Assembly (NCBI GenBank): GCA_963931495.1
Contig: OZ007020.1
Span: 540,001 to 572,000 of the forward strand
Origin: an uncultured Alphaproteobacteria bacterium
GTDB taxonomy: Bacteria > Pseudomonadota > Alphaproteobacteria > Rs-D84
Reading direction: 5' to 3'
DNA: 32,000 nt
Shown: in pieces, positions 1-9,931 of the stretch
Layout: every line of letters begins with the position of its first letter
Numbering within the stretch: position 1 is the first letter of the stretch
Notes under the pieces: model-generated
Told to the model about the DNA's origin: nothing
Seen by the model: only the letters and a program-made list of their open reading frames with translations
The model's database searches: none
Made by a program: the position numbers and the translations under genes

Positions 1-540
1 GTCTGGCAGCAGCGGAAATATAAGCACGGCGACACAGCGACAATTGGGTACATCCCAGGTACCACCAGCGCGTCAATTAACAAGTGGTTCGTCTGGCAGC
101 AGCGGAAATATAAGCACGGCGACCCAGCAACAATTGGGCACATCCCAAGTACCACCAGCGCGTCAATTAACAAGTGGGTCGTCTGGCAGCAGCGGAAATA
201 TAAGCACGGCGACACAGCGACAATTGGGTACATCCCAGGTACCACCAGCGCGTCAATTAACAAGTGGTTCGTCTGGCAGCAGCGGAAATATAAGCACGGC
301 GACCCAGCAACAATTGGGCACATCCCAAGTACCACCAGCGCGTCAATTAACAAGTGGGTCGTCTGGCAGCAGCGGAAATATAAGCACGGCGACACAGCGA
401 CAATTGGGTACATCCCAGGTACCACCAGCGCGTCAATTAACAAGTGGTTCGTCTGGCAGCAGCGGAAATATAAGCACGGCGACCCAGCAACAATTGGGTA
501 CATCCCAGGTACCACCCGCGCGTCAATTAACAAGTGGGTC
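1..540 (+). repeat. In-frame coding tandem repeat: six 90-bp units arranged as three 180-bp higher-order units (A-B-A-B-A-B'). It runs off the 5' edge of the window.
   Basis: gtctggcagcagcggaaatataagcacggc recurs at 1, 91, 181, 271, 361 and 451. Bases 1-180 are identical to 181-360, and 361-480 repeats them again. A and B units differ at 5 positions. The last unit (451-540) is an A/B hybrid with one extra change. Each unit encodes the 30-aa sequence GTSQVPPARQLTSGSSGSSGNISTATQ(Q/R)QL. Confidence 0.97.
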
Positions 541-2596
541 ATCTGGTGGCGGATCTGGTGGTAATACCGGTGGTGGTAAAGTAACAGGTAAGGGCGTAGG
601 AAGTACCGTTGGGAAAGCACTGGGTACCCTGAGTGGTGTTTTGATGGTTGTTGATGGCGCTAACAATCTATCAGAATCTGTTGCTGGTACAGAAAAAGCC
701 ACTTGGAAAGATGTTGGGCGAGGTGCCCTGGGTGGTGCAGAGACGGCAGGTGGGGCGACTGTGATTGCAAATTCATATGTAGGTTTTGGAACCGTTGTAT
801 GGATTGCATCAATTGCCACAGGTGCGGTAATCGGCGCGGCCGGTGCCGGTGCAGAAATGTTTTCTGAAACAGATTGTGAAATGGACCCTGTGTTGGGAAA
901 ATACGCCTGTTGTAATATTTCAAAGTTAAGTAATATTGATGCATATCGCGCCGAAATTGGTGACAGGATGTTTACAGATACTTTCCCATATGTACGTTAT
1001 TGTGTTCAGGGAAAAAAAGAATTCAAAGAAGAACAACCGTGGTTAAAGGGACGTTTTTTGGATGACCATTGGTCTGCAAATGCTGAGGTTGGTTTATGCC
1101 CGGGATATGATATGCCGGTAAATCCAGATATGAACATAACACTGATTGCTGTTGAAGATGCGGATGATTTTGGACACTGTTGGGCGTGGGAATGCGCAGA
1201 CGAAGGTTTTACACGATATAAAGGGACCTGTATTGGTAATGTCGTAGATGACCCTAGTCTGATGGGGCCGTTCTTGCCCGAAGGCTTTGAACGCACTGCG
1301 CCGCATACTGTTGGAACAGATTGTGATACTGCGGATTTGCCACAATATGCAACCGCTGGCGTATGGGTTGACAAGGGAAATAACCAGGTTGCGTGTGCTG
1401 CAACTGCGTGCCAGGATGGAACTTATTTGGTGCTGAATGCATCTGGGGTGTCAATGGGTTGGTGTGTTGCTGCGTCTTATTGTTCAGATGGTACGCATTT
1501 GAATATTATTGATGGGGTAAAAACAGATTTGCAATGTATTGCAGATTCAAGTGAAGCAGGTCAAACAAATGATAATTCGGGTGCGGTGGGCGGCACACCA
1601 TCAACCCCAGAAAGTGTCGCCAATCAATCTGGTAATAATGACTCGTCTGGTGTGGGTAATGAATGTGCACGTGGGGTGCCTGGGTACGTTGTATTTGACG
1701 GTGTATGTATGACAATTTCGCAAATGCAACAGATTCAAAATCAACGGGCTGCGCAACAAAAAAATGACCAGATTGCAGGTCTGGAATCACAAATTAACCG
1801 CTATACAAAAACAATAACAAGCATTGAAGAATCGCATACGGATGACAAGGTTAGTGTATGGAAGAATGCGGAGGGGAAATTTAATACATCACGCTTGCTG
1901 TCAGATTCTATTGCGGGGGTTGCGTTGGGCACTGTTGGTGGTTTTGTGGTTAATAAACTGGTCAAAGACCATCATGTTGAAACAGGGTTTGAAGAAATCG
2001 TATGTGTTATAGATGGGGAACAAATTGCAAGCTATGATGAAGAGTTTGTAATTTCTGGTGCGGTAAATAAGGCAGAGTGCATTGGTAACAATGCGTCATA
2101 CGGTAATACTTATGTTTGGGCATCGCGTACATCAGGTGGGACAAACTATTCAACGATGATAGAAGATGTAAACAATCCAGAAAACAATGCGTGCTGGATA
2201 CGGGTAGATATAGGTACGACGAATAACAAGATAAAGGTATCAGATATTCCGTCGCGATGGTTTATGGTTGGTCAACAGGTTAATTGTGGCAGTTGGGCAG
2301 ACTATGACACTTTGCGTGAACGGGTATTGGATGCGCGCAAGAGTGGCCGAACATGGGCGACGGTTGGTGGTGCGGTTGGCGGTGCTGGTTTAGGTGTTGG
2401 GATAATGGAATTATTTGGTAATCGCTTGATTGGCGGCAAGGTTATGGGTCAAAAGTCGCTAGATGAAGTAGAATTGCTGTATTCGCAGATGACGACAACG
2501 GAACGCGCACAGTACGAAGAAGCGATAACGGAACTGGGGCGTGCGTGTGATGAGCTGCATGTACTTGGTGGTGTTCATTCTGCGTGCGGGGATTAA
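2..2596 (+). CDS. Large exported or membrane-associated repeat protein, 5'-partial, function unknown. Order of regions: S/G/T/Q-rich 30-aa repeats, Gly-rich hydrophobic segments, a Cys-rich region, a Gln-rich coiled-coil-like stretch and two further hydrophobic segments.
   Basis: The frame stays open from the window edge; the listed TTG at 44 is only the first in-window start. Stop at 2594-2596, followed by a rho-independent terminator. Hydrophobic segments include VIANSYVGFGTVVWIASIATGAVIGAAGAGA, IAGVALGTVGGFVVNKLV and WATVGGAVGGAGLGVGIMELF. Many paired cysteines are present, e.g. GHCWAWECADEGFTRYKGTCIG. I recognise no family. Confidence 0.8.
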   Translation, partial: SGSSGNISTATQRQLGTSQVPPARQLTSGSSGSSGNISTATQQQLGTSQVPPARQLTSGSSGSSGNISTATQRQLGTSQVPPARQLTSGSSGSSGNISTATQQQLGTSQVPPARQLTSGSSGSSGNISTATQRQLGTSQVPPARQLTSGSSGSSGNISTATQQQLGTSQVPPARQLTSGSSGGGSGGNTGGGKVTGKGVGSTVGKALGTLSGVLMVVDGANNLSESVAGTEKATWKDVGRGALGGAETAGGATVIANSYVGFGTVVWIASIATGAVIGAAGAGAEMFSETDCEMDPVLGKYACCNISKLSNIDAYRAEIGDRMFTDTFPYVRYCVQGKKEFKEEQPWLKGRFLDDHWSANAEVGLCPGYDMPVNPDMNITLIAVEDADDFGHCWAWECADEGFTRYKGTCIGNVVDDPSLMGPFLPEGFERTAPHTVGTDCDTADLPQYATAGVWVDKGNNQVACAATACQDGTYLVLNASGVSMGWCVAASYCSDGTHLNIIDGVKTDLQCIADSSEAGQTNDNSGAVGGTPSTPESVANQSGNNDSSGVGNECARGVPGYVVFDGVCMTISQMQQIQNQRAAQQKNDQIAGLESQINRYTKTITSIEESHTDDKVSVWKNAEGKFNTSRLLSDSIAGVALGTVGGFVVNKLVKDHHVETGFEEIVCVIDGEQIASYDEEFVISGAVNKAECIGNNASYGNTYVWASRTSGGTNYSTMIEDVNNPENNACWIRVDIGTTNNKIKVSDIPSRWFMVGQQVNCGSWADYDTLRERVLDARKSGRTWATVGGAVGGAGLGVGIMELFGNRLIGGKVMGQKSLDEVELLYSQMTTTERAQYEEAITELGRACDELHVLGGVHSACGD

Positions 2597-2625: not shown

Positions 2626-2655
2626 ACGGGGCATAATTTAAAAGCCCCGTTTTTA
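2626..2655 (+). terminator. Rho-independent terminator of the giant repeat-protein gene
   Basis: ACGGGGC (2626-2632) pairs with GCCCCGT (2644-2650), with an 11-nt loop and a following TTTT. Confidence 0.8.
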
Positions 2656-2672
2656 TATACCAAGGAAAGACA

Positions 2673-2900
2673 ATGAACAAAATATATTTATTAATCTTTG
2701 TGTTCGGTATCGTAATCGGGGCGTATTTCGCCGGCACGCGCGTCGCAACACAAAAATGTAATGCGCGTGTCGCCACCGTCACAGCCGGTGCACAAAAACA
2801 AATATTTCAAACAATGGGTGATGTTAATGCGGAAACTTTTAGTACTGGGGTGCGTGATATTCGTCGCATCTTGCGCGAAAAATACTCAATTGCCGAATAG
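2673..2900 (+). CDS. Small type-II (N-terminal anchor) membrane protein, 75 aa; candidate i-spanin-like component
   Basis: ATG at 2673 follows AAGGAAAG (2662-2669). The N-terminal transmembrane helix is LLIFVFGIVIGAYFAG and the C-terminal part is polar. The next ORF overlaps it out of frame. Confidence 0.6.
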   Translation: MNKIYLLIFVFGIVIGAYFAGTRVATQKCNARVATVTAGAQKQIFQTMGDVNAETFSTGVRDIRRILREKYSIAE

Positions 2901-3015
2901 TTCATGGGTGCCGTGTATACCAATTTATGGGCGAACAGGGGACTGGGACGTAATCAGTGATGATTTGGCACGTAACATATATCGCCACAATAAAATGTGT
3001 GAAAAACAGTCATAG
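2821..3015 (+). CDS. Small lipoprotein, 64 aa precursor, starting inside the preceding gene in another frame; candidate o-spanin-like component
   Basis: MLMRKLLVLGCVIFVASCAKN has a basic N-terminus, a hydrophobic core and a lipobox-like VASC. The mature part of about 47 aa contains 3 Cys (CAKN..., PCIPIY, NKMCE). The ORF track begins it at 2761, but the signal peptide only makes sense from the ATG at 2821 or 2827. Confidence 0.55.
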   Translation: MLMRKLLVLGCVIFVASCAKNTQLPNSSWVPCIPIYGRTGDWDVISDDLARNIYRHNKMCEKQS

Positions 3016-3033: not shown

Positions 3034-4089
3034 TTATTTTGCCGCTTCAACCAAACTTTCCAGTGCGGTCTTTAATCGCACCAGCGAAGATTCATACGTT
3101 GCGCAATCGCGCGATATTTCTGAACGATATGCATCACGCAAATTGTTTGACATATATGAACATGCACGTAAATGCTGGGAACAATACGAATGACCAATCG
3201 CAAATGATTGTTGACCACGTACGGAACTTTCCGTGCCCGCCCAATCAATATCTAGGGCAGATTCCAGATTTTCCCACGAATTGTCGCCCGTATATTTGCC
3301 GATGATTTCATCCCAATATTCATTCATTTCGGCGTCTGTCCATATGTTTGTGCCACCGGCTGCGATTAGTTCATATATCAATTTGTCAATTTCTGGTTTG
3401 TATTTTGCGTCAATTTGGGCCAACTTTGAACTGCAATAGCAACGGTTGTATTCGGTGTCTGCGCGTTCACAATAATCATTCATGCAATCAATATAGTCCG
3501 CCATACAACGCGCAGATGATACCGCGTTCCCATTATACACCAATGCAGACGTGTTGCCGGATTTAATGTTCGCATTGGTTGACGCATCACCGCGCGATGA
3601 ACGCGTTGCCCCAGATGCCGCCACCATGTTGGTTGATGCCGTCCCAGAACGTGCAACAACACGGCGTGATGATGTTGTCCCAGGACGTGCCGTGCCAGCA
3701 GATGTCGCCGTCGCCGCGCGTGCATTTGATGTCGTCGTCGCGCGACGCGCAGACACCCCACGCGATGTTGTGCCAGATGTCGTCCCCGCCCGCGCCGCAG
3801 ACGCAGTTGTCCCCGCCCGCGCCGATGTTGTTGGGGTGCGCGAAACAACCCGGCGGGTTGCCGTATTCGGGGCGGTGTTTGTACGGGTCAAAACATTAAT
3901 CTGGGCATTGGATTGTGACGGATTCGTACCCGGATTTAATTGGGTGCGCATAGTATTGTTCATGTACGGATACAAATTATTGTATGTATTTGCACTGATA
4001 TAATCCGATGGCACAGATGTTGCCGCCCAGGCCATTGGGGCGACCGATATGACGGTTGTTATGATAAAAAATTTAATGCGCATTAACAT
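3034..4089 (-). CDS. Secreted protein, function unknown, with a signal peptide, an Arg/Ser/Thr/Ala-rich low-complexity region and a Cys-rich helical C-terminal domain
   Basis: Signal peptide MLMRIKFFIITTVISVAPMAWA|AT. The low-complexity tract is RRVVSRTPTTSARAGTTASAARAGTTSGTTSRGVSARRATTTSNARAATATSAGTARPGTTSSRRVVARSG. The C-terminal domain contains CMADYIDCMNDYCERADTEYNRCYC. The start could be 4119, 4089 or 4083; I chose 4089 because it sits directly before the signal peptide. Confidence 0.75.
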   Translation of the reverse strand: MLMRIKFFIITTVISVAPMAWAATSVPSDYISANTYNNLYPYMNNTMRTQLNPGTNPSQSNAQINVLTRTNTAPNTATRRVVSRTPTTSARAGTTASAARAGTTSGTTSRGVSARRATTTSNARAATATSAGTARPGTTSSRRVVARSGTASTNMVAASGATRSSRGDASTNANIKSGNTSALVYNGNAVSSARCMADYIDCMNDYCERADTEYNRCYCSSKLAQIDAKYKPEIDKLIYELIAAGGTNIWTDAEMNEYWDEIIGKYTGDNSWENLESALDIDWAGTESSVRGQQSFAIGHSYCSQHLRACSYMSNNLRDAYRSEISRDCATYESSLVRLKTALESLVEAAK

Positions 4090-4148
4090 CTGATTACAAT
4101 TGTAAAAATTTTCAAGCATTCATACAAGTATTTATTTTACATAAAAAT

Positions 4149-7793: not shown

Positions 7794-8621
7794 TTATTCC
7801 TGTATCTGGGGCAGGCAGCGGCGCAGGGCGTCGTGCCAATGCGGGATTGTTATGTCGAATGTTTTTACAATTTTGGCTTTATCCAAAACGCTGTAAAATG
7901 GGCGGGTGGCTGCGGTTGGGTATTCCGATGTAGGAATCGCGTTCACATGGCATTTGCGGCCGCCCAATTCCATAATTGCGGTTGCAAAATCATACCATGA
8001 ACACACGCCCAGGTTGGTGTAATGATATATTCCTGCTGTGTCGCGGTTGATTTGTGGCAATATTTTCACGATTGTGTCGGCCAAATCGTCTGCGTATGTC
8101 GGCGTGCCGATTTGGTCGCATACCACATTTATCGTTTCGCGCTGTGCGCCCAGGCGCAACATTGTTTTGACAAAATTGTTCCCATACGGGGAATACAGCC
8201 ATGCTGTGCGAATTATGATTGCGTTGTCATTATTTTGTAATATTGCGCGTTCGCCCGCCAATTTTGTTTTTCCGTATACAGACGTTGGATTTGCTGCATC
8301 GGTCGTTTTGTACGGTGTGTGGGACGTGCCGTCAAATACGTAATCTGTGGAAATATGTACCAGTTTACAGCCCGTGCGCGCCAGATTTTCGGGGCCGTTT
8401 ACATTGACGCGTGTGGCCAAATCGACATCTGATTCGGCGCGATCCACGGCAGTGTATGCGGCGCAATTGATGATAGTATCGATATTGTTTTCGCGCACAA
8501 ATTTCTGTACGGCATCAAAATCCGTTATGTCCAATGTGTCGGAATCTGTCGCGATCGCGTTCGATATGCGCGCGGTTAATTCGCGCCCCAGTTGACCATT
8601 ACAACCCGTTATCAGGTACAT
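7794..8621 (-). CDS. rfbD: dTDP-4-dehydrorhamnose reductase
   Basis: N-terminal Rossmann motif MYLITGCNGQLGREL. Also STDYVFDG and the YGKTK catalytic motif. The 275-aa size is typical of RmlD. It overlaps the rfbC stop by 23 nt. Confidence 0.92.
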   Translation of the reverse strand: MYLITGCNGQLGRELTARISNAIATDSDTLDITDFDAVQKFVRENNIDTIINCAAYTAVDRAESDVDLATRVNVNGPENLARTGCKLVHISTDYVFDGTSHTPYKTTDAANPTSVYGKTKLAGERAILQNNDNAIIIRTAWLYSPYGNNFVKTMLRLGAQRETINVVCDQIGTPTYADDLADTIVKILPQINRDTAGIYHYTNLGVCSWYDFATAIMELGGRKCHVNAIPTSEYPTAATRPFYSVLDKAKIVKTFDITIPHWHDALRRCLPQIQE

Positions 8622-9150
8622 CTTTTAATCCTTTGGCTATTCTGTCTTTGTCCGAAGTAATAATTTTATCCGCCGGGATTCGCCAATCGATGCCGATTTC
8701 AGGGTCGTCGTATCGTATGCCGATTTCTGATTCAGGGTGATAAAAATTATCACATTTATACGCAAATATGGCGGTATCGGTTAACACCGAAAATCCGTGT
8801 AAAAAACCGCGCGGTATAAACAACTGACGTCCGTTTTCAGCGGATAATTCCACCGCCACATGGCGGCCAAACGTTGGCGAGTTTTTGCGAATATCAACAG
8901 CCACGTCCAAAACTGTGCCGTGCAGAACGCGAACCAGTTTTGCCTGGGCATATTCGCCCAATTGACAATGCAGGCCACGTATAACGCCATAGCACGATTT
9001 GGATTGGTTATCCTGGACAAAACGGTTTGGAATGCCGTTTTTGATAAATTCATTTTCATTATAACTTTCGAAAAAGTATCCGCGTGCGTCGGTGAATATT
9101 TTAGGTTCCACGATAACAATGCCGTCAATATCTGTTTTTATAAAGTTCAT
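8599..9150 (-). CDS. rfbC: dTDP-4-dehydrorhamnose 3,5-epimerase
   Basis: The RmlC cupin signature runs from MNFIKTDIDGIVIVEPKIFTDARGYFFESYN through RGLHCQ to FIPRGFLHGF, 183 aa in total. AGGGGA lies 7 nt upstream of the ATG at 9150. Confidence 0.92.
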   Translation of the reverse strand: MNFIKTDIDGIVIVEPKIFTDARGYFFESYNENEFIKNGIPNRFVQDNQSKSCYGVIRGLHCQLGEYAQAKLVRVLHGTVLDVAVDIRKNSPTFGRHVAVELSAENGRQLFIPRGFLHGFSVLTDTAIFAYKCDNFYHPESEIGIRYDDPEIGIDWRIPADKIITSDKDRIAKGLKDVPDNGL

Positions 9151-9283
9151 ATTTAATCCCCTGGTTATCTGTATCAGTAATGTAATCATATTCATAATGA
9201 TTGGGCAAGGGCGGAAAAAAGTTTTATTGAATTTTTTGCAGTAAGTGATTATAATGATTAGGTACATACAAAGGGGGGGATTT

Positions 9284-9931
9284 ATGCCAAAAGCAAAAAA
9301 ATCAAATGCGAAAACAAGTACGCGTGTAAAAGCAACGCGTGCAACGCGTCGTACGTCGGCAAATCCGATTGCGACATCTATTAAACGTTTGTATAACAAA
9401 AGTGCGCCGTTGTTGATATGCGAAGCATTGCTGTTTGGCGTCGTGGCGGTATTGATGGTATTGATGCCGGTTACATTTCTAAAAGCGTTAACAGTTATTG
9501 TTGGCGTTGGTTTAATCTTGTTCGGATTATATCGCACCATTGCCGGATTTGTCGTGTCGCGTGACATGGGTGGCGGATGGTTTGATGTTCTGTTCGGATT
9601 GTTGGGGGTCGTGCTGGGGGTACTGTTCTGTATATATCCGGCGAGTTCGGCAATCAGTTTGGTGTACATATTTGTCGTGCTGTTCTTGTTCCGGTCACTG
9701 TTGTCGTTGATATTCTCGGTCAATATGATACGCGCAAAGTTTGGACATTATTGGGTTGATTTAGTTATGTCAATTATACTGATTGCGCTGGCGGTGTTCT
9801 TGCTGTTTTATCCAATGGCCGGTGCGGTTGTGATGATATACTATTTAGCGGTTACGTTGTTGTTGTATGCAATCGCAGATGTGTACATGTACATTGAAAT
9901 ATTACGATTGAAAAAGTTAGTGAATGATTAG
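9284..9931 (+). CDS. HdeD/DUF308-like multi-pass membrane protein with a Lys/Arg-rich N-terminal tail
   Basis: ATG at 9284 follows AGGGGGGGA. TATAAT is at 9250-9255. Six hydrophobic helices follow the DUF308 pattern, e.g. GGGWFDVLFGLLGVVLGVLFCIYP and HYWVDLVMSIILIALAVFLLFYP. Confidence 0.7.
   Translation: MPKAKKSNAKTSTRVKATRATRRTSANPIATSIKRLYNKSAPLLICEALLFGVVAVLMVLMPVTFLKALTVIVGVGLILFGLYRTIAGFVVSRDMGGGWFDVLFGLLGVVLGVLFCIYPASSAISLVYIFVVLFLFRSLLSLIFSVNMIRAKFGHYWVDLVMSIILIALAVFLLFYPMAGAVVMIYYLAVTLLLYAIADVYMYIEILRLKKLVND

Follow-up and report, generated by a model that had tools for sequence, protein, structure and literature searches.

The gene pair and its signals

The window, meaning the whole stretch of DNA that was analysed (32,000 nucleotides), covers bases 540001-572000 of a genome assembled as a single contig of 958,618 bp. 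Within it lie two short overlapping genes, here called ORF-A and ORF-B, with these features around them:

2626 to 2654, plus strand: terminator-like hairpin and T-run, with a 7-bp G+C-rich stem (2626-2632 pairing with 2644-2650) and an 11-nt loop, ending 18 nt 5' of ORF-A
2662 to 2669, plus strand: Shine-Dalgarno-like AAGGAAAG for ORF-A, read from the sequence
2673 to 2900, plus strand: ORF-A, i-spanin-like, 75 aa, with an N-terminal transmembrane anchor, an invariant Cys29 and the C-terminal motif DIRRILREKY(S/T)IAE
2816 to 2821, plus strand: Shine-Dalgarno-like GGGTGA for ORF-B, internal to ORF-A, ending 5 nt 5' of the ATG at 2827, read from the sequence
2827 to 3015, plus strand: ORF-B, o-spanin-like lipoprotein, most likely 62 aa, with a V-A-S-C lipobox whose lipidated Cys is residue 16
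2827 to 2900, plus strand: dual-coding overlap, most likely 74 nt, with ORF-B in the +1 frame relative to ORF-A

Both reading frames are there as the first-pass annotation described them. ORF-A begins with a hydrophobic anchor, and ORF-B, in the +1 frame relative to ORF-A, carries its lipobox near the N-terminus and ends at 3015, 115 nt past the stop of ORF-A. The mature ORF-B peptide is about 46 aa long and contains two invariant cysteines, C30 and C58. Two in-frame ATGs could start it, one at 2821 (64 aa) and one at 2827 (62 aa). The ATG at 2827 is invariant in 80 of 80 distinct related loci and the one at 2821 is unconserved. Because the ATG at 2827 is conserved and GGGTGA ends 5 nt before it, the product is most likely 62 aa long and the overlap 74 nt, rather than the 64 aa and 80 nt given at first from the start at 2821. 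In the relatives, GGAGG, GGGG or GGTGA stands at an equal distance before ORF-B, and purine-rich GGGG or GGAG motifs occupy the site that corresponds to the one before ORF-A.

One residue of ORF-B sets this genome apart. Residue 26 (window 2902-2904) is Trp here and Cys in most relatives, where the local motif reads N-N-x-C-x-P-C. The mature peptide of this genome thus lacks one of its three usual cysteines and keeps the invariant C30 and C58.

Conservation and dual coding

ORF-B was found as a single-copy gene in 130 of the 151 sampled genomes of the Enterousia family. Among the 133 family genomes that are at least 90% complete it is present in 121, and it reaches 14 of 18 genera; ORF-A was found in 23 of the 24 genomes of the genus. 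Enterousia is a member of the uncultured order Rs-D84, all of whose members have reduced genomes (PMC12306168). The records that bear the pair come from animal and human gut metagenomes. One of them (L062, CAVGNU010000012.1) is an Enterousia spanin pair on a contig deposited as Bacteroides fragilis, which probably means that the bin was given a wrong name or contains foreign DNA.

All 80 distinct loci have an overlap of exactly 74 nt in the +1 frame, and this recurrence of the pair's geometry far exceeds chance. The first-pass annotation had proposed to look for loss of the overlapping frame in relatives and for homologues of ORF-A that occur without the lipoprotein. The frame is kept in 80 of 80 loci with the constraint expected of dual coding, and ORF-A always comes with ORF-B in the loci examined. 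Across the 80 loci, the nucleotide entropy in the part that only ORF-B uses is 0.40, 0.32 and 1.16 at codon positions one, two and three, and this freedom at the third position implies purifying selection on the protein. Within the overlap the entropy stays low (0.46-0.65) at each of the three codon positions, the pattern that reading of both frames should leave. In pairwise comparisons dN/dS comes to about 0.20 for the ORF-B-only part and about 0.64 for the ORF-A-only part, so that the latter evolves fast.

Both proteins keep particular features. In 22 aligned orthologues of ORF-A the hydrophobic N-terminus is kept, residues G21, C29, D62, I63, R64, L67, Y71 and I73 are invariant, and the C-terminus, D-I-R-R-x-L-R-x-K-Y-T-I-A-E, is nearly so. 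In the lipobox of ORF-B, V13 and C16 are invariant, S15 is nearly invariant, the position of the A is variable, and Ala follows the Cys in most sequences. The mature part of ORF-B keeps the block P-I-Y-G-R..D-W..I-S-D-D-L-A-R-N-I-Y-R-H-N in addition to C30 and C58.

Relationship to phage spanins

Spanins carry out the last step of phage lysis, and their genes lie beside those for the holin and the endolysin. The initial suggestion that ORF-A and ORF-B resemble such a pair is borne out by profile searches. All 25 tested ORF-B orthologues match PHROG 1275, annotated as 'Rz-like spanin', with a best E-value of 1.7e-10 (1.2e-6 for the ORF-B of the window), and 11 of 22 ORF-A orthologues match PHROG 1026, also 'Rz-like spanin', with a best E-value of 3.3e-8; the match of the window's own ORF-A is weak (E=2e-3). 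The similarity of ORF-B to phage o-spanins lies outside the signal peptide, in the mature C-terminal part (PIYG..DWDV..HN..C). In that part it shares 40% identity over 35 aa with the o-spanin of E. coli phage Fostie (PP925832.1), whose overlapped spanin pair of 89 aa and 65 aa, located through a tblastn match, directly follows holin and endolysin genes.

The same genome offers a second comparison. A P2-like prophage near 857.8 kb carries a holin-like gene and an endolysin of 134 aa, together with an i-spanin of 71 aa whose gene overlaps that of the o-spanin, and these spanins match PHROGs 1026 and 1275, the same two families as ORF-A and ORF-B. The cassette is located as follows:

G000 858006-859181 (L127 8006-9181), minus strand: lysis cassette of the P2-like prophage, after the gpD gene

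It contains two small proteins, one with a weak holin/anti-holin match, and its endolysin belongs to PHROG 873. The first reading had called the i-spanin candidate unusually short. PHROG 1026 is a family of 85 positions, and because the 71-aa i-spanin of the prophage sits in a real cassette, as does the 89-aa one of Fostie, the length of ORF-A is normal for this family.

Other searches give the relationship its distance. Pfam, NCBIfam and PDB sequence searches returned no match for ORF-A or ORF-B, including none to Pfam Rz or Rz1; BLASTP produced no alignment between ORF-A and the Fostie i-spanin; hhalign of the ORF-A and ORF-B alignments with this genome's prophage spanins gave weak, partial matches; tblastn of ORF-B against GenBank phages reached E ~0.09 at best; and a pattern scan of IMG/VR based on the ORF-B alignment turned up no viral contig. 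HMMER, run exhaustively over 1.84 billion representatives, yielded only 24 matches. The distant ones are lipoproteins of 60-81 aa that share the mature motif of ORF-B, and one of them follows a Phage_holin_10 gene. The lipoprotein was also checked against T4SS and entry-exclusion families, an option raised at the outset, and no such family matched.

Structure prediction fits the same picture. AlphaFold2 models ORF-A as a helix over residues 2-56, a break and a second helix over 60-71 (pLDDT 78), which suggests a protein anchored in the inner membrane and mostly helical in the periplasm. ORF-B is predicted as a signal helix, a disordered linker (residues 20-36) and a C-terminal helical unit (37-61) at pLDDT ~90. 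When the periplasmic parts (ORF-A 24-75 and ORF-B 17-62) were predicted together with alignments, the score was 0.28 against a mark of 0.32, which counts neither for nor against a complex. LspA and LolA are encoded in the genome, so that lipoprotein processing and sorting are available, and ORF-B would be sorted to the outer membrane.

Two-component spanins occur in embedded, overlapped or separated gene architectures, with the o-spanin gene placed in the 3' part of its partner's gene or beyond it, and at least one periplasmic cysteine is present in 507 of 528 known systems (PMC6139136). Set beside the features by which such systems were described (Kongari et al. 2018, PMC6139136), the pair has the i-spanin build, an o-spanin with a lipobox, the architecture, the periplasmic cysteines and the family relationship; it does not have a place in a lysis cassette beside holin and endolysin. 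Judged by their sequences, ORF-A and ORF-B appear to be remote but consistent homologues of phage two-component spanins, and with the conservation described above they are very probably a genuine spanin pair under selection.

Genomic setting and expression

In the 80 loci with 6-kb flanks the gene order is conserved: ssb on the minus strand, rho on the plus strand, the pair on the plus strand, a convergent gene for a Cys-rich exported protein (76 of 80) and tRNA-Pro. The tRNA neighbours the pair in 38 of 40 loci and lies 1.2 kb downstream of it in the window, with the pair on its 5' side. A search for a holin, endolysin, secretion-system gene or any other phage gene beside the pair found none in the window, which agrees with the first-pass annotation as far as holin and endolysin are concerned. 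The neighbours here are a 970-aa exported protein, a Cys-rich exported protein, tRNA-Pro and a GNAT gene.

The first-pass annotation also placed the pair between two large Cys-rich exported proteins. That is true of this window, but only 6 of the 80 related loci have the upstream 970-aa gene. This gene for a protein with a signal peptide starts 316 nt before the window, ends at 2596 and separates rho from the pair here. It is a lineage-specific insertion at the junction of rho and the spanin genes, with the terminator-like hairpin still directly before ORF-A. Window positions 1-546 within it consist of a 90-bp unit repeated 6.1 times (94% matches), which encodes 30-aa repeats rich in Ser, Gly, Thr and Gln.

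The convergent neighbour (window 3034-4119, minus strand; the one present in 76 of 80 loci) encodes a 361-aa exported protein whose middle is rich in Thr, Ser, Ala and Arg and whose C-terminal domain is Cys-rich. Pfam, PHROG and NCBIfam gave no match to it. It matches parts of many open frames of 500-1100 aa in related genomes, which suggests a large paralogous family of surface proteins. The two flanking Cys-rich proteins were also compared as possible members of one family, and BLASTP found no similarity between them (E=0.34). Farther along the window (8599-9723, minus strand), a dTDP-4-dehydrorhamnose 3,5-epimerase domain takes up only residues 196-368 of an ORF of 374 aa. The TTG start of that ORF may be placed too far upstream, or else the protein has a long low-complexity N-terminal extension; the ORF overlaps an rmlD-like gene by 23 nt.

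Between rho and ORF-A there is little room. In the 57 loci with an adjacent rho, the median distance from the rho stop to the ATG of ORF-A is 59 nt, 43 of them have 120 nt or less, and a G+C-rich hairpin with a T-run takes up essentially all of the gap. Among the 80 loci, 63 have a hairpin and T-run of this kind within the 80 nt that precede ORF-A, the median distance to the ATG being 18 nt, against a background of 10.4% of ORFs across the genome. The one in the window was read from the sequence; the automatic terminator scan allows loops of at most 8 nt and hence missed it. A conserved sigma-70-type promoter was sought upstream of ORF-A, and matches were seen in only 16 of 79 loci, at no fixed position. 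With no promoter detected for the pair alone, and with the rho terminator directly in front of it, the pair is probably transcribed from rho at a low level, by transcription that runs on past that terminator.

A particle cluster elsewhere in the genome

A domesticated podovirus-like particle cluster lies at 786.5-800.9 kb, 258 kb from the pair. At its head stand a near-consensus promoter and then two hairpin/T-run terminators. Behind these it encodes a signal-less hydrolase of 136 aa (PHROG 938 endolysin, 1e-4; Pfam Hydrolase_2, 1.3e-3) and a holin-like protein of 98 aa as called (orthologues have 65-79 aa), apparently with two membrane segments and with no family match. The rest consists of T7-type scaffold, capsid and tail-tube proteins, a split terminase, a portal and a GH108 fusion. 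No spanin is encoded in the cluster, here or in five other genomes inspected.

Two observations concern further genes of this kind. Between the scaffold and capsid genes there is a strongly cationic protein built of (A/P/V)-K-K repeats, its length varying over about 60-190 aa (L126, G000 786001-801600), which occurs also at L148 3985-4320, L150 1970-2545, L151 3954-4439 and L152 4590-5054 and could be DNA-condensing or membrane-active. At G000:C1:302143-302385, inside a 651-aa frame, a Pfam Phage_lysozyme match of 24 bits, barely above the cut-off, marks a possible extra wall hydrolase.

A single set of 151 genomes was searched for both the capsid and ORF-B, and the discordant genomes were rechecked with the portal, the hydrolase and an ORF-B profile. 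The counts were:

All 151 genomes: both 128, pair only 2, cluster only 11, neither 10
The 133 genomes at least 90% complete: both 119, pair only 2, cluster only 8, neither 4

Pair and cluster co-occur in the 133 good genomes with a Fisher p of 5e-4, with genomes counted as independent and no correction for phylogeny. They have been lost together four times, in four genera, where 0.54 co-losses would be expected under independence. This correlated loss supports a functional link between the pair and the cluster, by a statistic that ignores phylogeny. Discordant genomes run in both directions. Two good genomes (G155 and the single-contig G070) are without capsid, portal and hydrolase, yet their pair is intact, and eight good genomes keep the cluster with the pair absent. 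A profile search and the orthologous Cys-rich neighbour gave no sign of a diverged or relocated copy in the genomes without the pair, and five cluster-only genomes show no replacement spanin at the head of the cluster.

The two also differ in age. The capsid is found throughout the order (22 of 29 genomes of five other families), but those five families have no equivalent pair behind rho, and the pair is confined to the Enterousia family. Because of this difference in range, the pair is a later, family-level addition and not an original part of the ancient phage, and it follows that particles existed, and still exist, without it. The nearest phages to the capsid are Pelagibacter and Vibrio podophages, in which no match to ORF-B was found. 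Both the pair and the particle cluster stand behind intrinsic terminators; no regulatory motif common to the two was seen.

Proposed function and alternatives

The explanation we prefer is that the pair is a host-fixed two-component spanin of phage origin which completes lysis for the release of the domesticated particles. For this whole chain we give a rough probability of 0.5. By analogy with lambda Rz/Rz1, ORF-A and ORF-B would join by their C-terminal parts in the periplasm, and the resulting bridge, stabilised by disulfides, would reach from the inner to the outer membrane. As long as the peptidoglycan mesh encloses it, this bridge would do no harm, as with Rz/Rz1 (Berry et al. 2012; Kongari et al. 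2018, PMC6139136); fusion or disruption of the membranes would have to await degradation of the wall. Read-through from rho would supply the pair at a low level, so that the cell is pre-loaded; such constitutive expression would be tolerable because the pair would be inert until wall degradation. The trigger may be the 136-aa hydrolase of the cluster together with its holin-like protein with two transmembrane segments, and the lethal decision would be left to these terminator-gated genes. The pair would then be the missing third step of lysis, the one that lets the particles leave a diderm cell. Counting against this chain are the discordant genomes in both directions, the order-wide range of the cluster beside a family-limited pair, the lack of ORF-B matches in the phages nearest to the capsid, the lack of a common regulatory motif and the fast evolution of the ORF-A-only part.

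A different possibility is that the pair has nothing to do with the cluster and is a non-lytic, everyday bridge of the envelope, expressed constitutively with rho, which tethers inner and outer membrane, shapes the periplasm or serves vesicle formation. Such a role would suit the pair's location immediately after rho in a housekeeping block, its lack of a separate promoter, its survival in the two genomes that lost the cluster and its restriction to one family when the cluster is order-wide. But the pair is dispensable, being absent from 12 of the 133 good genomes across several genera, and its loss is correlated with loss of the cluster. No spanin is known to have a non-lytic role, and a look through the literature turned up none; on balance we consider this bridge unlikely. 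A bolder form of the idea makes the pair a standing part of the envelope, fed by continuous read-through from rho and coupled to Rho levels. It might then act as a non-lytic tether or a site of controlled fusion and vesiculation, or it might leave cells pre-armed to burst completely at any breach of the wall. This bolder form is improbable.

The pair may instead serve another release that depends on lysis, such as explosive lysis for public goods or DNA, or an export of large proteins like type 10 secretion, with other wall hydrolases. Domesticated lysis cassettes that bear spanins do release toxin or enzyme in Serratia and Yersinia (PMC10847048). This genome encodes many large exported Cys-rich proteins, two of them flanking the pair, and the 651-aa frame with the Phage_lysozyme-domain match lies elsewhere in it. 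Type 10 secretion cassettes are contiguous with their cargo, however, and no holin or hydrolase is adjacent to the pair. The upstream flanking protein occurs in 6 of 80 loci only, and since the flanking proteins have signal peptides, they need no lysis to exit the cytoplasm. Release of this kind is an improbable function for the pair, somewhat more so than the everyday bridge.

It is very unlikely that ORF-A and ORF-B are no spanins at all, and are instead a membrane protein and a lipoprotein of an entry-exclusion, T4SS or anti-phage system whose PHROG matches reflect the composition of signal peptides. The silence of Pfam, NCBIfam and PDB, the weak E-value (2e-3) of the window's ORF-A and the failure of BLASTP to align ORF-A with a phage i-spanin speak in its favour. 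Against it, the similarity of ORF-B is in the mature C-terminal part and not in the signal peptide, both partners match the very PHROGs that pair in real lysis cassettes, and no secretion-system gene is nearby.

That the pair is a decaying, functionless remnant of a prophage once integrated near tRNA-Pro, as its phage origin and the tRNA 1.2 kb downstream might suggest, is hardly credible, because the pair has stayed whole in 130 of the 151 genomes from a family with genomes below 1 Mb, is single-copy and syntenic, keeps its overlap and start codon invariant under purifying selection, stands on the 5' side of a tRNA that belongs to a conserved block, and has no other phage gene nearby. An integration scar at tRNA-Pro was considered separately and rejected, the tRNA being part of the conserved block in 38 of 40 loci. 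Of the three options that the first-pass annotation had offered, a prophage remnant is contradicted by family-wide conservation, single copy, synteny and purifying selection, and a domesticated module is supported.

Comparison with known systems

The closest structural likeness is to the overlapped spanins of phages such as Fostie and of the P2-like prophage. Those too consist of a short type-II membrane protein of 71-89 aa and a lipoprotein of about 62-65 aa, whose gene begins within that of its partner in another frame, with periplasmic cysteines in both partners and the mature o-spanin motif P-I-Y-G .. D-W-D-V .. H-N .. C. Unlike phage spanins, which come directly after holin and endolysin, the pair is a solitary one behind rho, with the nearest candidate endolysin 258 kb away, and it is inherited vertically across a bacterial family. 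With lambda Rz/Rz1 (Berry et al. 2012; Kongari et al. 2018, PMC6139136) it shares an inner-membrane partner, an outer-membrane lipoprotein, periplasmic cysteines, C-termini that would meet and shared coding DNA. It differs in that Rz has 153 aa and fully embeds Rz1, whereas here the i-spanin is half as long and the genes are overlapped.

Domesticated phage functions that are scattered on the chromosome are known from GTAs whose lysis genes lie away from the particle genes: the holin/endolysin of RcGTA, BaGTA (bioRxiv 10.1101/2024.11.20.624540) and LypABC of CcGTA (PMC13236601). Alphaproteobacterial GTAs also resemble the present case in release by host lysis and in terminator-gated expression, and the BaGTA loci are integrated by antitermination (bioRxiv 10.1101/2024.11.20.624540). 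In those GTAs the detached element is holin/endolysin or LypABC, whereas here it is a spanin, and its link to the particles is statistical only. The word 'spanin' is absent from the BaGTA preprint (10.1101/2024.11.20.624540) and appears in the CcGTA paper (PMC13236601) only in the reference list.

Bacteria that keep phage spanins for a release of their own are found with type 10 secretion and other domesticated lysis cassettes, such as ChiWXYZ of Serratia and YenLC of Yersinia entomophaga (PMC10847048). There holin, endolysin and spanins form one cassette beside the cargo, whereas this pair is isolated and its neighbours have Sec signal peptides; the contiguous holin, hydrolase and spanins beside signal-less cargo that define type 10 secretion are not found around it. 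Type 10 secretion cassettes and the lysis modules of tailocins and GTAs are the nearest precedents of host-kept spanins, and in them the spanins stay with holin and endolysin. No publication describing a host-fixed spanin pair was found, and the most detailed Enterousia genome paper, the only Enterousia one searched, mentions neither phage nor spanins.

Significance

The pair is a clean natural case of long-term dual coding, with a 74-nt overlap frozen across 80 distinct sequences. It is also a lone spanin pair kept under selection throughout the history of a family whose genomes are below 1 Mb, where little useless DNA survives. If it serves the particles, the Enterousia family would have a clear GTA-like system built from parts of different phages and scattered on the chromosome, and disruption of the outer membrane would be a selectable requirement for particle release. 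If it does not, the pair would give the first indication that a spanin can have non-lytic work to do.
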